From the NCBI GenBank assembly GCA_938083505.1, contig CALKCF010000001.1:1-64000 (forward strand): 64,000 nt of DNA, read 5' to 3'. A program made the translations under genes and the position numbers. Positions within the stretch are counted from its first letter, which is position 1; the number at the start of each line of letters is the position of its first letter. The notes beneath the pieces were generated by a model, which ran no database searches, had not been told where the DNA came from, and worked only from the letters and a program-made list of their open reading frames with translations. The stretch is from an uncultured archaeon. Lineage in GTDB: Archaea > Thermoproteota > Nitrososphaeria_A > Caldarchaeales > Wolframiiraptoraceae. This document shows positions 40,565-46,697 of this stretch, in pieces.

Positions 40565-41602
40565 TTAATTTGTCCCACATTTTTGGAGAAGGTGTTCTGA
40601 CAATATTCGCCATAACTCATCCGTAACTGTCGACTTTATGCTCTCAACGGTACCTTCAGACCTTATCACTTTTCTTCCATACTTTTTAGGTACCACTTCG
40701 CCTATAATTGCAGCTTTTATACCTGCCCTTTTAAGGGCGGAAATTATTTTTTTATAATTACCTCTAAAAGAGGCTATCAGAGTGCCTGAACTTATCAGTT
40801 TCAAAGGGTCGCACCTTAGTGTTTCACAAATTATCTTAGTCTCTCTAGCAATCGGTATGGCATTTTCATAAACAATAAACCCTGTCCCAGAAGCCTCGGA
40901 CATTTCGTAAAGCCCGCCCAACAGGCCACCTTCGGTCGGATCATGCATCGCCGTGGCAAGACCCGTTGACGCTATCTTTATGGCCTCATTCACGACGCTT
41001 ATCTTCCTGTAAAACATAGAGGCCCTTTTGAGTAAACGTTTGTCTATTTTCGAGCTAAGTGCCTCTGACAAATCCGTAGCAAGTATCGCCGTTCCCTCTA
41101 TGGCCGCAGTCTTCGTCATGAGTATCTTATCACCAGGTTTCGCGCCCCTCGTCATGTAGTATTTATTCCCTTCAACTATTCCTATCATCGTTCCGATTAT
41201 GATTGGTTCAGATATATGGAGTGCAACCTCGGAATGGCCCGTGATAACTGAGACGTGAAGTTCCGATGCTGCCCTATGAATCTGCTTGACTATGGACGCG
41301 AATAAGTGTTCATCGTTTTTGGGCAGTAGTATACAAGATGAAAACCAAGCAGGTTTTGCGCCACAAACTGCTACATCATTAGCATTTATGTGAACTGACA
41401 ACCACCCGAGTAATTTCCTCGAGCCGGTTATAGGATCGCACGCTATAACTAGGCGTCTCTTGGGTACATCGACGACTGCCGCATCCTCGCCATATGCTGG
41501 CCATAGAAGAACATCCTTCCTCTTCGCTCCTAACCATTTGAAGACCGTTTTTTCCAGAACTTCTTTCGGCAATTTACCGTAGGTTGTCCTCATATCGTAC
41601 AT
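40565..41602 (-). CDS. AIR synthase (PurM/HypE-like) family protein
   Basis: GEDAA, DPITG, NANDVA, GHSE, GAKPGD, MHDPTEGG. Confidence 0.88.
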   Translation of the reverse strand: MYDMRTTYGKLPKEVLEKTVFKWLGAKRKDVLLWPAYGEDAAVVDVPKRRLVIACDPITGSRKLLGWLSVHINANDVAVCGAKPAWFSSCILLPKNDEHLFASIVKQIHRAASELHVSVITGHSEVALHISEPIIIGTMIGIVEGNKYYMTRGAKPGDKILMTKTAAIEGTAILATDLSEALSSKIDKRLLKRASMFYRKISVVNEAIKIASTGLATAMHDPTEGGLLGGLYEMSEASGTGFIVYENAIPIARETKIICETLRCDPLKLISSGTLIASFRGNYKKIISALKRAGIKAAIIGEVVPKKYGRKVIRSEGTVESIKSTVTDELWRILSEHLLQKCGTN

Positions 41603-41637
41603 TCTAACATGTGCTCTGACTTTAATACATTAAAACT

Positions 41638-42306
41638 CTATAACGACCTATTGCGAAGTATGTTCTCCACTTTTGGCACATCTGCTGCAGAAGAAACTCT
41701 ATATAGGATAGCAAGTTTGCTATCAAACAACCTGAGGGCATTGGTTGACACATAAAGCACATTTCTAAGCTTCTTGATAAGCTCAGGTAAATGCATCTCA
41801 GGATACTTTTTAAAAGCTTCAATGAAGGGGTCGGTTTGGTAGGATGCCAAGCTGAAGTCGACATTATTATTTAGCATTCTGGGTAACACAGCCGTGAATT
41901 TTTTGGAGGCTTCTAGCAAAAAGTAAGTAAATTCTAGTGTTATGCACGGCATATCGCAAGGAAGGACGAGTACACTAGAACTCGGAATGTGCTCCAGAAC
42001 CTCTCTTACCTTTTCATATTCATTCGAATACTGAGTTTTCTCCATCCTCATGAGTGAGGCAAAGTATTTTTCACATATAGGCTCGTAAGCCTCAGCCTGC
42101 GTTTCATTCTCAACCGATAAGAACAACTCTGTAACCTCGTCGGGCACACTGTCAAGGACGTACTCAATCATAGGCTTCCCAGCTATCTTTACCAACCCTT
42201 TCTTATCACCCATGTAACCTTTTCCGTTTACAATGATGACACAAGAATAACTTCTTGTCCTACCTTTAGACATGGATGCCAACCGTTCCTCTTTTTTCAT
42301 TATCAT
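41638..42306 (-). CDS. MobA-like NTP transferase (degenerate motifs)
   Basis: MG.KKGLVKIAGKPMIEYV and VLPCDMP present; canonical LAGG..R and NINT..D are altered. Confidence 0.7.
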   Translation of the reverse strand: MIMKKEERLASMSKGRTRSYSCVIIVNGKGYMGDKKGLVKIAGKPMIEYVLDSVPDEVTELFLSVENETQAEAYEPICEKYFASLMRMEKTQYSNEYEKVREVLEHIPSSSVLVLPCDMPCITLEFTYFLLEASKKFTAVLPRMLNNNVDFSLASYQTDPFIEAFKKYPEMHLPELIKKLRNVLYVSTNALRLFDSKLAILYRVSSAADVPKVENILRNRSL

Positions 42307-42419
42307 AACAATATTAGTTATAATTAGTTATAGTTGTCCCTGAATATAAATGCTTTAGAAGTTTCAGCCAGCTGTATAACGATTACAATAAAGCCTTAAC
42401 GTAGAATTGTTACGTACTC

Positions 42420-42434
42420 GAAACGCTTAAATAA
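42420..42434 (+). promoter_or_regulatory. Putative BRE/TATA promoter of the aromatic biosynthesis operon
   Basis: GAAACGC followed by TTAAATA (42427-42433), about 25 nt upstream of the leader start region. Confidence 0.5.
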
Positions 42435-42457
42435 AAACGCATAATGCAATTTACTAA

Positions 42458-42588
42458 AGAGAGGCGGTGAACGTGAGGGATTGCCTTTTCTTCATGGCTG
42501 GCTATAGCTGGTATTGCTATAGCCAGCCAGACGCCTCTCTCTAAAGCTATCTTCTCCTTTTTGGGTTTTTGTGGCTTTGGAGGGAGGT
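42458..42588 (+). promoter_or_regulatory. Putative attenuator RNA with alternative helices
   Basis: 42458-42466 pairs with 42532-42540 (9 bp); 42495-42508 pairs with 42516-42529 (14 bp perfect); 42534-42547 pairs with 42574-42587, covering the lysC SD. Confidence 0.7.
42473..42544 (+). CDS. Putative aromatic-amino-acid leader peptide MRDCLFFMAGYSWYCYSQPDASL
   Basis: SD-like GGCGGTGA at 42463-42470, GTG start, TAA stop; 6 of 23 codons are Phe/Tyr/Trp; lies directly upstream of the shikimate operon. Confidence 0.7.
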   Translation: MRDCLFFMAGYSWYCYSQPDASL

Positions 42589-42595
42589 CATGTCT

Positions 42596-43813
42596 ATGAA
42601 AGATATAATAGTCGTAAAGCTTGGCGGCTCTGTCCTCCAAGACTCTAAGGCTCTTGAAAAGGCAGCGTCTTGGGTAAAGGATCTGCTAAAGGAACATGGA
42701 CTGGTGGTGGTGGTCTCAGCACTAAAGGGTATGACCGATGAGCTTTTGAAGATGGCTAAGGAGGTTAACCCAGAGGTTCGACCCGAAGTACTCGACGAAA
42801 TTTTGGCGATGGGTGAAAGGACGAGTGCTAGACTTTTCACTGCTGCGTTGAATAGGTTCGGCGTTGATGCTGTTTTGGTAGACCCATCCAACGATTACTG
42901 GCCTGTAATAACGGACGACGTACATTTTGACGCAAACCCCATCTATCACGAAACAGAGAAAAGATGTAAGGAGAAATTATTGCCATTGATTGAGGCTGGC
43001 AAAGTCCCTGTTGTGTGCGGATACATTGGTGTTAGTACCTCGGGTAAGATAACTACGTTAGGTAGGGGTGGTAGTGATACGACGGCCATACTGCTCGGTA
43101 GTTGTCTAAAAGCTGCGGAAGTTGTCTTAATTAAAGATGTTGAGGGTATATATTCAGGAGATCCAGATAAGGTCAGTAATGCTGAGATACTTGAGGTACT
43201 TAACGTAGATGAGGCCAGGTTGTTGACAGAAGGAGGCGCAAAGGTCATTCATTCAAAGGCATTAAGATACCTATCAGAAGGTCTCAGGTTAAGAGTGTCC
43301 AGTATGGAAAGCTTAGGAAGATCAGGAACCGTCATAATTGGCACCCTTCCAAAACTTGATGTTGTCAAACACCCGGCTAAAGCAACCATGATAACGATAC
43401 TTTCGAGAAACTCTAATGGTGTTTCGCTCGTTAAACTTGTCGTGGAGTTTGTCCAAAAACACAACGGAGAAATCCTCAACATAACGACTGATGAGAAATC
43501 CATCATAGTTTATACGAATTTAGATACCAATTTTATGGATAAGTTACATAAGGAGGTTGTAGAATCCGGTATGGGCAAGGCCATAAGCTTTTTCGAAAGG
43601 TTGTCTGCTATAACAATAAGCGGCAGGATGCTTGAAATAAGTCCGGGTGTAATACATAAAGTTGTAGAGCCGCTCGCACGACACGGCATAAATATCTATG
43701 GTTTGGTGACCATAAGCTCATCTATCAGAATATTCGTGTCCGCAAAAGATGCAGATAAGGCGACATATCTTATAAAAGCAAACTTGGAGGTGGAGTTGAA
43801 TGAAACAAATTAA
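42596..43813 (+). CDS. lysC: Aspartate kinase
   Basis: VVKLGGS, VVVSA..GMTD.L, GER.SA, TTLGRGGSDTTA, DVEGIYSGDP, GAKVIH; C-terminal ACT region. SD GGAGG at 42583-42587; ATG at 42590 or 42596. Confidence 0.93.
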   Translation: MKDIIVVKLGGSVLQDSKALEKAASWVKDLLKEHGLVVVVSALKGMTDELLKMAKEVNPEVRPEVLDEILAMGERTSARLFTAALNRFGVDAVLVDPSNDYWPVITDDVHFDANPIYHETEKRCKEKLLPLIEAGKVPVVCGYIGVSTSGKITTLGRGGSDTTAILLGSCLKAAEVVLIKDVEGIYSGDPDKVSNAEILEVLNVDEARLLTEGGAKVIHSKALRYLSEGLRLRVSSMESLGRSGTVIIGTLPKLDVVKHPAKATMITILSRNSNGVSLVKLVVEFVQKHNGEILNITTDEKSIIVYTNLDTNFMDKLHKEVVESGMGKAISFFERLSAITISGRMLEISPGVIHKVVEPLARHGINIYGLVTISSSIRIFVSAKDADKATYLIKANLEVELNETN

Positions 43814-44855
43814 AGTTGCGGTACTTGGAGCTACCGGAATGGTTGGTCAACGATATGTGAGCATGCTTTCGAGACATCCGTGGTTCAAGCTTTCATGTCT
43901 AACAGGGAAGGAGTCTGCCGGTAAGAAGTACGGCGAAGCAGTGAGGGGCAACCCGATCGACATCCCGTCTAGCGTAGCGGATATGGAAGTTTTACCTAAT
44001 GAGCCAAAGTACGTTGACGCAGATCTAGTATTCTCTCCACTACCAACCGAAGTTGCTCGCGAATCGGAGCCACTTTTTGCGCAAGAAGGTTTTCCCGTTG
44101 TGAGCGATGCTTCTGCTCATAGGATGGAGAAGGATGTCCCACTTATCGTACCTGAGATAAACCCGGAACATATAGAGTTAATAGACGTTCAGAAAAAGAA
44201 TAGAAAGTGGGATGGGTACATCGTAACCACACCAAACTGCACGACCATAGGTTTAATCATGCCCCTCAAACCACTACACGATGCTTACGTTCTCAAGAAA
44301 GTCGTGGTCACTACGATGCAAGCGGTCTCAGGTGCGGGCTTCCCAGGAGTACCATCGCTTTCCATACTTGGGAACGTTATACCATACATATCCGGTGAGG
44401 AAGATAAAGTGGAAAAAGAAACGCAGAAGATACTGGGGAAGTTCAAGAGTAACCATATAGAGCCCGCTCCTATAATCATTGAGGCCAGCTGCACCAGAGT
44501 TCCTACAATAGACGGACACCTAGAATCCGTGTATATTGAGACAGAGAAACCCGTGAACATAAACGATGCAAAAAAGGTGTTAGCAGAATTCAAAGGTCTT
44601 CCACAGGAGCAGGCTCTCCCTACAGCTCCTGATAAACCGATAATTGTCATGGAAGAGGAAGATAGGCCGCAACCAAGGCTTGACATATATGCTGGAAGTG
44701 TTCCGGGAATGAGTGCGGTCGTTGGGAGAGTAAGGTCTGCAAAAGACGAGAGAGCTCTGAAGTTCTTTGTTCTTAGCCATAATACGATAAGAGGTGCTGC
44801 CGGCATAGCAATACTGACAGCTGAGTTGCTACACGTATCCGGGAGGATAGAGTAA
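43800..44855 (+). CDS. asd: Aspartate-semialdehyde dehydrogenase
   Basis: LGATGMVGQ, PNCTT, QAVSGAG, CTRVP..DGH, HNTIRGAAG. Confidence 0.96.
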   Translation: MKQIKVAVLGATGMVGQRYVSMLSRHPWFKLSCLTGKESAGKKYGEAVRGNPIDIPSSVADMEVLPNEPKYVDADLVFSPLPTEVARESEPLFAQEGFPVVSDASAHRMEKDVPLIVPEINPEHIELIDVQKKNRKWDGYIVTTPNCTTIGLIMPLKPLHDAYVLKKVVVTTMQAVSGAGFPGVPSLSILGNVIPYISGEEDKVEKETQKILGKFKSNHIEPAPIIIEASCTRVPTIDGHLESVYIETEKPVNINDAKKVLAEFKGLPQEQALPTAPDKPIIVMEEEDRPQPRLDIYAGSVPGMSAVVGRVRSAKDERALKFFVLSHNTIRGAAGIAILTAELLHVSGRIE

Positions 44856-44857
44856 AC

Positions 44858-45655
44858 ATGGTTTTCGGAAAGCAGGTCAGGTTGAGTAGAATAACAGAAA
44901 AAGGAAAGATGCTTTGCATACCGATGGACCACGGTGTTACTATAGGGCCGGTCAAAGGCTTAGACAAGATATTTGATATAATAGAAAAGATTAGCTTTGG
45001 AGGAGCCACGGCCGTTTTGACACAAAAAGGTATACTGAGGATGATGCCCAAGCCCTTGAACGTTGGCACTATAATGCATGTCTCTGCAAGTACGTCATTA
45101 GGACCATCACCTAACTTCAAAGTGAGAGTTTCGAGTGTGGAAGAAGCCCTAAGGCTCGGAGCAGATGCTGTTTCCGTTCACGTTAATATAGGATGTAGTG
45201 ATGAGCCGAAGATGCTGAGAAAGCTTGGAATGCTTGCTGATGAGTGCGACGAATGGCAAGTACCGTTCATAGCGATGATGTATCCGAGGGGCGAGAACAT
45301 AAAGAATCCAAACGACCCTGAGATCGTAGCACATGTTGCAAGGATAGGTGCTGAGCTTGGAGCTGACATCGTAAAGACGCCCTACACAGGCACTCTGGAG
45401 ACATTTAGGAAGGTTGTGGATGGTTGCCCAGTTCCCATAGTCATAGCCGGTGGACCGAAAGCAGAGAGCGACCTAGAAGTTTTGAAGATGGTAAGGGAAG
45501 CTATGGACGCCGGCGCTATCGGCGCAGCAATAGGCAGGAACGTTTTTCAACATGATAATCCGTTTGCGATAACCAAAGCGCTCAGGGCCATAATAATTGA
45601 GGATTACACACTCAATGAGGCGCTGGAGGTGCTTAAGGACGCATCTACCAAGTAA
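44858..45655 (+). CDS. aroA': 2-amino-3,7-dideoxy-D-threo-hept-6-ulosonate (ADH) synthase, DhnA-type class I aldolase
   Basis: PMDHG...GP, LGADAVSVHVN.G, AMMYPRG, ELGADIVKT, IAGGPK, GRNVFQH; adjacent to DHQ synthase II. Confidence 0.88.
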   Translation: MVFGKQVRLSRITEKGKMLCIPMDHGVTIGPVKGLDKIFDIIEKISFGGATAVLTQKGILRMMPKPLNVGTIMHVSASTSLGPSPNFKVRVSSVEEALRLGADAVSVHVNIGCSDEPKMLRKLGMLADECDEWQVPFIAMMYPRGENIKNPNDPEIVAHVARIGAELGADIVKTPYTGTLETFRKVVDGCPVPIVIAGGPKAESDLEVLKMVREAMDAGAIGAAIGRNVFQHDNPFAITKALRAIIIEDYTLNEALEVLKDASTK

Positions 45656-46697
45656 AAAGGAGTTTTGCATAGATTTAAGAGACTGGAACGACGAAATCTT
45701 TAGAGAAGCTTTCTCGAGAGGGATTACTACATATTATTGTGATCCTACCAACATTCCACAAGAGCTTAGACAAAAGCTGACGATATACTCGGATTTGTCG
45801 ACCGGAGATGTCATTGTTATACCTCTCGGTAAAGAGGTACCGCAGGTGAGAAGGTTTGCGGTGTATGCTGTCGTGCTAAATTATAGCGATGTAGAGAAGT
45901 TAATCTCCGCGGTAAAGCTTGGCGCCGAGGCTTTGATAGTTGATGCTAAAGATTGGAAGATAATACCGTTAGAAAACATAATCGCATACCTGCAAAAAAC
46001 ATCCACGAAGCTTATGGCGAAGGTCGATAGCTTAGAGGAGATCGAAACTATGTACGGCATCTTGGAGAGAGGGGTTGATGTTGTCTTGTTTAAACCAAAG
46101 AGCAAAGAGGATGTTAGCAGAATATTTGAGGCGATCAGCTACATCGTAAGTGTTCAGCTAACTTCGGTGGAAGTTACAGAAGTCAAGGATGTAGGGATGG
46201 GGGATAGGGCATGTATCGATACGATATCTATTTTATCGATAGGGGAGGGCATGCTCGTTGGAAGTAAAGCAAGTTTTCTATTCCTCATTCACAGTGAATC
46301 GTTAGGTTCTTCGTTCACGGAACCAAGACCCTTCAGGGTAAATGCAGGTGCGATACATAGTTATGTTTTAACACCTACTGGTGGAACTAAGTACTTATCA
46401 GAGATAAAGGCAGGTGATAGAGTCCTGATAATTAACATGCAAGGCTCGGCAAGACCCGCCACAGTCGGCAGGGTTAAGATAGAGAGGAGGCCGATGAGAC
46501 TTATCAGGGCTGAGGCTAACGGTGAAGAGGGTACTGTTGTTTTGCAAAACGCTGAGACCATAAGGCTTATAGGACCAGACGGTAAGCCCGTCCCGGTAAC
46601 TGAAGTTAAACCTGGTGATAAAGTGTTAGCGTACATAAGCAGAGAGAAGGCTAGGCATTTCGGAGTGGCGATTGACGAATTCATAGTGGAGAAATAA
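45615..46697 (+). CDS. aroB': 3-dehydroquinate synthase II (start uncertain)
   Basis: DWKIIPLENIIA, LERGVD, GDRACID, GEGMLVGS, RPFRVNAG, GRVKIERRP, LQNAETI, RHFG. Confidence 0.93.
   Translation: MRRWRCLRTHLPSKKEFCIDLRDWNDEIFREAFSRGITTYYCDPTNIPQELRQKLTIYSDLSTGDVIVIPLGKEVPQVRRFAVYAVVLNYSDVEKLISAVKLGAEALIVDAKDWKIIPLENIIAYLQKTSTKLMAKVDSLEEIETMYGILERGVDVVLFKPKSKEDVSRIFEAISYIVSVQLTSVEVTEVKDVGMGDRACIDTISILSIGEGMLVGSKASFLFLIHSESLGSSFTEPRPFRVNAGAIHSYVLTPTGGTKYLSEIKAGDRVLIINMQGSARPATVGRVKIERRPMRLIRAEANGEEGTVVLQNAETIRLIGPDGKPVPVTEVKPGDKVLAYISREKARHFGVAIDEFIVEK

Follow-up and report, generated by a model that had tools for sequence, protein, structure and literature searches.

A candidate switch between two Shine-Dalgarno sequences in the leader RNA of an archaeal aromatic-pathway operon

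The window analysed here is a 64,000-nucleotide stretch of contig CALKCF010000001.1 (GenBank assembly GCA_938083505.1), from an uncultured archaeon of the family Wolframiiraptoraceae in the order Caldarchaeales. The subject is the short leader in front of an aspartate kinase gene, where one RNA strand, called B, can pair either with the Shine-Dalgarno (SD) sequence of a small upstream open reading frame (uORF) or with the SD of the kinase. The strand that holds the leader SD is called X, the one that holds the kinase SD is called C, and the two helices are X:B and B:C. The features of the region, in window coordinates, are as follows.

41638-42306, minus strand: divergent MobA-like gene, the upstream flank of the region
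42420-42434, plus strand: promoter motif GAAACG CTTAAATAA, like a transcription factor B recognition element (BRE) and TATA box, present at all loci of the genus and of the sister lineages
42458-42466, plus strand: X, AGAGAGGCG, the 5' arm of the long-range helix X:B, holding the leader SD
42472-42496, plus strand: Ha, a 9-bp hairpin (42472-42480 with 42488-42496), a member of the RNAalifold consensus
42473-42544, plus strand: predicted leader ORF of 23 codons, GTG 42473 to TAA 42542-42544, with homologous uORFs before orthologous kinases
42495-42529, plus strand: H2, a perfect 14-bp hairpin with a 7-nt loop, made of the leader Tyr/Trp codons
42532-42551, plus strand: B, the shared strand, of which 42532-42540 pairs with X and 42534-42551 pairs with C
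42552-42569, plus strand: loop of the B:C hairpin, pyrimidine-rich, a possible weak second anti-SD (B2)
42570-42587, plus strand: C, the 3' arm of B:C, holding the kinase SD
42590-43813, plus strand: aspartate kinase ("lysC"; NCBIfam aspartate kinase), starting at ATG 42590 or ATG 42596
43800-46697, plus strand: asd, ADH synthase (aroA') and 3-dehydroquinate synthase II (aroB'), by family profile matches

The kinase heads an operon that continues with asd, then ADH synthase, then 3-dehydroquinate synthase II. The asd product matches TIGR00978 at 442 bits, ADH synthase (2-amino-3,7-dideoxy-D-threo-hept-6-ulosonate synthase) matches TIGR01949 at 338 bits against a cutoff of 299, and the aroB' product has matches to the DHQS-II (3-dehydroquinate synthase II) family. 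The operon is the archaeal aspartate-semialdehyde route to aromatic amino acids, and because of these downstream genes the gene labelled "lysC" heads an aromatic and not a lysine operon. The order kinase, asd, DeoC-type aldolase is also present at the relatives' loci. The closest named aspartate kinases, at 85-87% identity, are from Aigarchaeota and include that of Candidatus Terraquivivens tikiterensis (Wolframiiraptoraceae, phylum Nitrososphaerota). A second, distant aspartate-kinase paralogue, at ~30-38% identity and with an open frame of ~468 aa, lies elsewhere in the genome, at G000:C5:33682-34575; it presumably serves the Lys/Thr/Met branch, which would fit an aromatic-dedicated kinase in the window. 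As to the two in-frame ATG codons of the kinase, locus L007 has only the first (42590), and the sister lineages L136 and L137 have only the second (42596).

The GC content of the 16S rRNA is 62.7% and that of the tRNAs 64-70%, far above the 44% of the window, which indicates a thermophilic host, and folding was therefore modelled at ~70 °C besides 37 °C. The 3' end of the 16S rRNA is GGAUCACCUCCU, and strand B resembles its anti-SD. The TATA-like motif lies 23-28 nt upstream of X across the loci of the genus and the sister lineages. The usual archaeal distance from TATA box to transcription start would place the mRNA 5' end at ~42456-42458, so X would be at the extreme 5' end of the transcript.

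An initial annotation of this DNA had proposed the two helices as four pairing segments, and all four are found at the coordinates it gave. X and the X-facing part of B (CGCCTCTCT, 42532-42540) are exact reverse complements. The segment CCTCTCTCTAAAGC (42534-42547), which spans the TAA of the leader, pairs with GCTTTGGAGGGAGG (42574-42587), and in the minimum free energy (MFE) fold this helix extends to 18 bp, 42534-42551 with 42570-42587. The leader SD is GAGG at 42461-42464 within X, 8 nt before GTG 42473, and the kinase SD is GGAGGGAGG at 42579-42587 within C. B encodes the last leader codons (A S L) plus the stop. X:B and B:C are mutually exclusive helices with this common strand, and the kinase SD lies within a conserved hairpin, as in translational attenuators.

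The 171-nt region folds to -73.4 kcal/mol, with z = -6.1 against 200 dinucleotide shuffles. When the B window is shuffled, B:C at -29.3 kcal/mol has a z score of -5.5 (0 of 300 shuffles), and X:B at -17.9 kcal/mol has a z score of -2.6 with p 0.02. A repeat search also finds X:B, as a 12-nt, 92% inverted repeat (42455-42466 / 42532-42543). The X 9-mer and its complement occur at only these two sites within the 64-kb window, and the element is single-copy in the genome. A search of Rfam with 41500-43500, at the gathering threshold and at E up to 10, returned no family match, only tRNAs. Neither a riboswitch nor a T-box is indicated by this result, nor by the sequence between the helices, which is not conserved across genera.

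Two smaller hairpins fill the space between X and B. In Ha, the 5' arm includes the leader start codon and the 3' arm is where the Phe codons lie; in the 12-sequence alignment described below, 93% of its cells are paired and one pair has changed on both sides. H2 is kept in relatives, in registers that shift from one to the next, and this shifting argues for an RNA structure rather than a fixed DNA operator. The idea that the H2 loop is an anticodon mimic or T-box specifier was dismissed as numerology.

Covariation among homologs, which the initial annotation had named as a check, was sought and found. The alignment (A2, n = 12) contains the window, eight members of its genus, and three sister-lineage loci from public assemblies, L138, L137 and L136, whose kinases are 73, 65 and 64% identical. 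A metagenome scan with the kinase returned only near-identical genus members and unrelated matches. In B:C, 14 core pairs are almost always paired and five pairs have changed on both sides; 84% of the cells are paired versus 44-58% in slid controls, and the covariation measures are matched by only 1-19 of 500 shuffles. The upper stem has been rebuilt in the sister lineages, for example from GAAGC/GCUUU to GAAAUC/GGGUUUU, and a CCGAU/AUCGG extension of the helix has been added there. Shuffles of the B window give B:C z scores of -3.1 to -5.5 in 11 of 11 sequences. Of the X:B cells in the 12 sequences, 98% are paired, and the pair at 42462 (column 19) runs through the series A-U, G-U, G-C. Two unpaired X:B cells are an artefact of MAFFT, which displaces L138 by two columns in X. 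RNAalifold, which produces a single consensus, gives Ha, a small H2 and B:C.

The most telling point is a single position of B. At 42536 the genus and L137 have U, and L136 has C. Both positions that can pair with it, 42462 in X and 42585 in C, read A in the genus and G in L137 and L136. Covariation of one nucleotide with either of two partners is the pattern expected of a two-state switch, and the triple is a rare kind of direct sequence evidence that both states of the switch are selected. The anatomy proposed in the initial annotation, two mutually exclusive pairings of B with the kinase SD and with the leader SD, is thus supported, both helices being conserved with compensatory changes. 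Since the events are few and the sequences related, the covariation is treated as good, not overwhelming, evidence.

Three further genera of the order (g11, g12 and g13) keep the logic of X, B and C with different sequences. The strands are as follows.

g12: X is CUGAGGCGG, B is CCGCCUCAG, and B also pairs with GUUUUGGGGUGG
g13: X is GGCCGGAGG, B is CCUCCGGCC, and B also pairs with the kinase SD
g11: X has a GGAGG core, B has a CCUCC core, and B also pairs with the kinase SD

In all three, B starts at or just after the leader stop, and its second pairing, with the kinase SD, has z scores of -3.3 to -4.1. The helix of g12 has an extension, GGAUGCGGUA/UACCGCAUC, which in a congener reads GGAAGCGGUA/UACCGCUUC, a U-A to A-U swap. 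Across genera, nucleotide conservation outside the helices is limited to coding sequence.

Genera g5 and g3, of the same family as the window, and the Bathyarchaeia have a different layout. There the partner of the 5' untranslated region (UTR) is the beginning of the aromatic run, and the second element is a covarying GC hairpin, which either holds the stop codon in a GNRA-like loop or stands directly after the stop. This stop-codon hairpin excludes the downstream SD. A shuffle test found no significant pairing of X with the stop-codon hairpin in g5, g3 or Bathyarchaeia, and SD accessibility in them is not clearly state-dependent; these variants probably work differently. The loci with the alternative layout are L010, L015, L016, L021 and L023 (~120 to 45 nt upstream of the kinase) and L033-L035 and L039, and their leaders are richer in aromatic residues, e.g. 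...FFAFWSYYYFAPA and ...YYFYYYHFP. Because the leaders recur with differing RNA layouts, we take the leader family to be old and the output module to be the variable part.

The predicted leader peptide of the window is MRDCLFFMAGYSWYCYSQPDASL. Its Phe codons are at 42488-42493 and its Tyr/Trp codons at 42503-42520. An extra in-frame GTG at 42467 is found only in the window and one relative, and GTG 42473 is the conserved start. In this genus, 5-6 of 23-25 leader residues are aromatic versus a background of 8.2%; over the leader ORFs as a whole the aromatic share is 22-48%, the upper values being those of homologous leaders elsewhere. In each region the most aromatic ORF was picked, hence the single P values are inflated. 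The leader frame, its SD, its position and its stop recur where the nucleotide sequences no longer align, and aromatic leaders precede orthologous kinase-asd-ADH synthase operons in Caldarchaeales, Nitrososphaerales and Bathyarchaeia. Just before the operon there is accordingly a predicted short ORF with its own SD and rich in codons for the end products, as in leader-peptide attenuators. The leader motifs are listed here.

Other genera of the family: ...VFFAFWSYYYFAPA, ...RFFFGFWSYGYFALA
Sister family: ...FSYYYRW, ...YFYPFSRYFYYRF
Bathyarchaeia, a distant group: ...FDYYFYYYHFP, ...FFSFGYYFYYYFR
Nitrososphaerales: ...KPIFGFRY

Some further observations concern the leaders of particular lineages. 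At the Nitrososphaerales-type loci L141 (~1078-1152) and L032 (~138 to 63 nt upstream of the kinase), what is shared is a leader peptide and not mere composition (M..RGGSLY..L.Y.KPIFGFRY, then stop), and conservation of this kind could point to a nascent-peptide effect, not simple codon sensing. At L115 (g13), ~126 to 54 nt upstream of the kinase, the aromatic frame ...TYYWPFGYTTFSFFYYRG, ending in a stop, has no ATG, GTG or TTG after the SD, and AUA is the first codon at the usual SD spacing. In genus g8 (Caldarchaeum-like; L119, L120, L122, L123), some members are without an aromatic leader before the orthologous kinase and others have short leaders ending ...TYY or ...KYY before the stop; the leader element seems to have been repeatedly lost or shrunk in that genus. 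A Tyr-Tyr-Arg motif (UAU UAU/UAC CGC) is found at window 42512-42520 and at homologous sites in g1, g11, g12, g13 and g8, and its CGC may be a rare codon in this AT-leaning genome, acting as a built-in slow step. When the genome was scanned crudely for further uORFs rich in particular amino acids, nothing convincing emerged. A Thr-rich small ORF (MLTFTTETTTF...) at G000:C6:38180-38275 (L143 281-376), 44 nt before a MacB/LolD-like ABC-transporter ATPase, is probably due to chance.

We lean, by a little, towards the view that this leader is a ribosome-sensed bistable RNA which serves as a translational attenuator of the aromatic-pathway operon. In the OFF state, B:C would bury the kinase SD and the leader SD would be free; in the ON state, X:B would bury the leader SD and the kinase SD would be free. 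With plentiful aromatic aminoacyl-tRNAs, ribosomes would load on X and traverse B, so that X:B could not last, and the local B:C hairpin would close each time translation of the leader terminated. With scarce supply, a ribosome would stall at Phe-6 or Tyr-11, within ~10 codons of the start, where it would block further initiation and leave X bare. B would then be untraversed and X:B would form, the more easily as B is made earlier than C. The kinase SD would be exposed at ~70 °C, its sole remaining competitor, the loop tract B2, being nearly melted at that temperature. That the direction of the logic cannot be fixed from sequence was said in the initial annotation, and we agree. Stall-to-ON is taken here as the required sign by an argument from biology, because stalling under starvation is unavoidable and a stall-to-OFF response would be self-defeating. 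To the helices, their covariation, the aromatic leader and the identity of the operon, all read directly from the genomes, the model adds a presumed promoter position and start site, a presumed ribosome behaviour, steric feasibility and the direction.

Folding gives a quantitative indication of how the two states might compete. In the X:B state the accessibility of the leader SD is zero; in the B:C state that of the kinase SD is zero and that of the leader SD is 0.27-0.77. In the window the balance tips towards B:C, by 6-8 kcal/mol at 37 °C and by 3.7 kcal/mol at 70 °C. The remaining eleven sequences have ensembles no more than 4.2 kcal/mol apart at 70 °C, and in most of them X:B is slightly ahead. 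The B:C hairpin amounts to -13.2 kcal/mol at 70 °C and -7.6 kcal/mol at 80 °C, and the alternative that does without B, in which B2 pairs with C, to only -1.4 kcal/mol at 70 °C.

The ribosome was modelled by masking 30 nt around the peptidyl (P) site and folding at equilibrium at 70 °C, in all 12 sequences. With a 30S subunit on the leader SD and start, B:C has a probability of 0.62-0.99 and the kinase-SD accessibility is at most 0.07 in 12 of 12. In the free RNA, or with the ribosome at the first Tyr codon, X:B has a probability of 0.58-0.96 in 9 of 12, and the kinase-SD accessibility is variable. Transcripts that end before C have X:B at P 0.83-0.93 in the window, even with a stalled ribosome, and on paper a kinetic route to the ON state would exist. 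The claim that ribosome position selects the fold is not borne out for the aromatic codons of the window, where modelled stalls leave B:C in place. In these models B:C is imposed by a 30S bound at the leader SD, and in the window it is opened only by a ribosome that has reached the stop. The folding under ribosome-footprint constraints that the initial annotation had suggested gave no state with an open SD at the aromatic codons of the window; by that check the equilibrium model of the window shows no switching and lends no support of its own to an ON state. On whether a stall might open the kinase SD the models divide: the equilibrium folds of the window keep the SD shut, and X:B is favoured in 9 of 12 with a ribosome at the first Tyr codon and in the truncated transcripts.

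Several of these results weigh against the attenuator, and they belong together. The window sequence itself favours B:C by 3.7-7.7 kcal/mol, and B:C in the window stays at P 0.98-0.99 at every stall position, so the ON state would have to be kinetic. In several relatives B2 still covers the kinase SD in the X:B state (accessibility 0.05-0.19), and a late-Tyr stall shifts most relatives towards B:C, with low kinase-SD accessibility. Closure of X:B around a stalled ribosome is possibly hard on steric grounds. The covariation consists of few events among related sequences, the complementarity of X and B is partly what is expected of any anti-SD-like strand opposite an SD, and the aromatic enrichment in the genus is modest, with P ~0.01-0.05 taken alone. 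The highest kinase-SD accessibility, 0.13-0.81, is obtained with a ribosome at the leader stop, where it covers B.

That last result fits positive translational coupling, in which B:C would keep the kinase SD shut until a ribosome at the last codons and stop of the leader unwinds B. Kinase translation would in that case follow leader translation, and X:B would do no more than limit leader initiation. The ribosome-at-stop position gives the highest accessibility in all the equilibrium models at 70 °C, with stalls giving less, and B does cover the last four leader codons and the stop. However, coupling of this sign would shut the aromatic operon exactly when the aromatic tRNAs are uncharged. It offers no reason for aromatic codons to be retained across phyla, and it leaves the covariation of X:B unexplained. 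We consider positive coupling unlikely.

The loop of the B:C hairpin bears on another alternative, transcriptional attenuation, by which the U-rich stretch between B and C would be an oligo-U terminator, possibly assisted by aCPSF1/FttA. X:B, able to form while C is still unmade, would hide the naked RNA and lead to read-through, a ribosome just past the stop would leave bare RNA and favour termination, and the effect could add to SD sequestration. Hairpin-less oligo-U termination is established in archaea. The loop is 65-80% pyrimidine in 12 of 12 sequences, and X:B is highly probable in the transcripts ending before C. The oligo-U tracts that the initial annotation had likened to archaeal termination signals are present in the window as two T5 runs (42555-42569), but they are not conserved as such a signal: only 6 of 12 sequences have a run of T5 or longer, and in 3 of 12 even runs of T4 are lacking. 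Neither helix has a bacterial-style U-tract after it, and the best conserved feature is B:C with an SD in its 3' arm. We consider transcriptional attenuation rather improbable.

A structured 5' RNA that acts independently of the leader is the next alternative, whether as a thermometer, a stabilising stem or a protein- or ligand-bound element, or with H2 as a DNA operator, the ORF being incidental. That the SD of a thermophile is held in a hairpin rich in G-U pairs is suggestive of this, as is the compact architecture with its closing stem, and H2 is a perfect palindrome downstream of a TATA box. Set against it are an ORF whose SD, start, stop and aromatic enrichment are kept in lineages that cannot be aligned, the lack of an Rfam match and the lack of cross-genus nucleotide conservation beyond helices and coding sequence. 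The register of H2 varies, so it is not a fixed DNA word, and a thermometer gives no reason to expect B to covary with a second partner. To this leader-independent reading we give little credence. Chance complementarity of purine-rich SDs with a pyrimidine-rich spacer, in which any CCUC-like run will pair with any SD and in which the X:B z score is only -1.3 to -2.6 in several genus members by composition-matched shuffles, is very improbable in view of the compensatory and triple covariation, the recurrence of the logic with different sequences in four genera, and the z scores of B:C and of the whole region given above.

Returning to the ribosome-sensed switch, the question is which known systems it resembles. 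It is most like the translational attenuators, and the closest are the mycobacterial polycysteine short ORFs, at which ribosome stalling is reported to decide whether a duplex sequestering the ribosome binding site (RBS) forms (Canestrari et al., bioRxiv 10.1101/834739). The likeness lies in a uORF rich in the end product, a downstream RBS held in an RNA duplex, and control at the level of translation (bioRxiv 10.1101/834739). The mycobacterial system is bacterial and leaderless, and its stalled ribosome reportedly blocks the sequestering structure directly. Here, in contrast, the short ORF has its own SD, which is itself the alternative partner of the anti-SD, the codons are for Phe, Tyr and Trp instead of Cys, and they lie at least 14-16 nt upstream of B. 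Because of that distance, direct blocking by the ribosome is not predicted in this genus.

The leaders of E. coli trpL, pheL-pheA and hisL also put cognate-rich codons before an operon, have mutually exclusive helices that share a strand, and rely on the coupling of transcription to translation, which archaea have as well. In contrast to those leaders, there is no Rho-independent terminator here, the 3' helix holding an SD and being followed by TCATG and no U-tract, and the strand that competes on the 5' side precedes the leader ORF, includes its SD and is not placed downstream of the control codons; the host is archaeal. The ermC and cat leaders share with the window a leader ORF and a hairpin that masks a downstream SD, and there a ribosome that stalls on the leader causes the segments to pair anew, so that the SD is unmasked. 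Their stall differs in depending on a drug and the nascent peptide and not on a hungry codon, their segments are all at or downstream of the stall site, and their leader SD is outside the switch.

We know of no bacterial design in which the leader's own SD is the competing strand. To our knowledge, leader-peptide attenuation is known only from bacteria, and no amino-acid-sensing leader has been documented in archaea. A full-text literature search, with incomplete coverage, found no archaeal leader-peptide attenuator, which is absence of evidence. What is new here is the reciprocal switch of two SDs around one anti-SD (SD1/anti-SD/SD2), in the lineage of the window and in three sister genera. 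In this flip-flop, leader initiation and operon translation would be mutually exclusive, and charged Phe-, Tyr- and Trp-tRNA would set the flux of ribosomes on the leader, which in turn would select the state. The wider proposition is that the locus is an archaeal ribosome-mediated amino-acid attenuator of a design undescribed in bacteria, and that it belongs, as one branch, to an ancient family of such aromatic leaders extending over Caldarchaeales, Nitrososphaerales and Bathyarchaeia; we regard the case for and against it as evenly balanced.

The locus is a concrete archaeal case with three defined strands that can be tested by mutation. Its leader suggests that the aspartate kinase of the window serves the aromatic pathway, and the recurrence of such leaders suggests an old and widespread family of regulatory uORFs in the TACK (Thaumarchaeota, Aigarchaeota, Crenarchaeota and Korarchaeota) archaea that genome annotation has missed.

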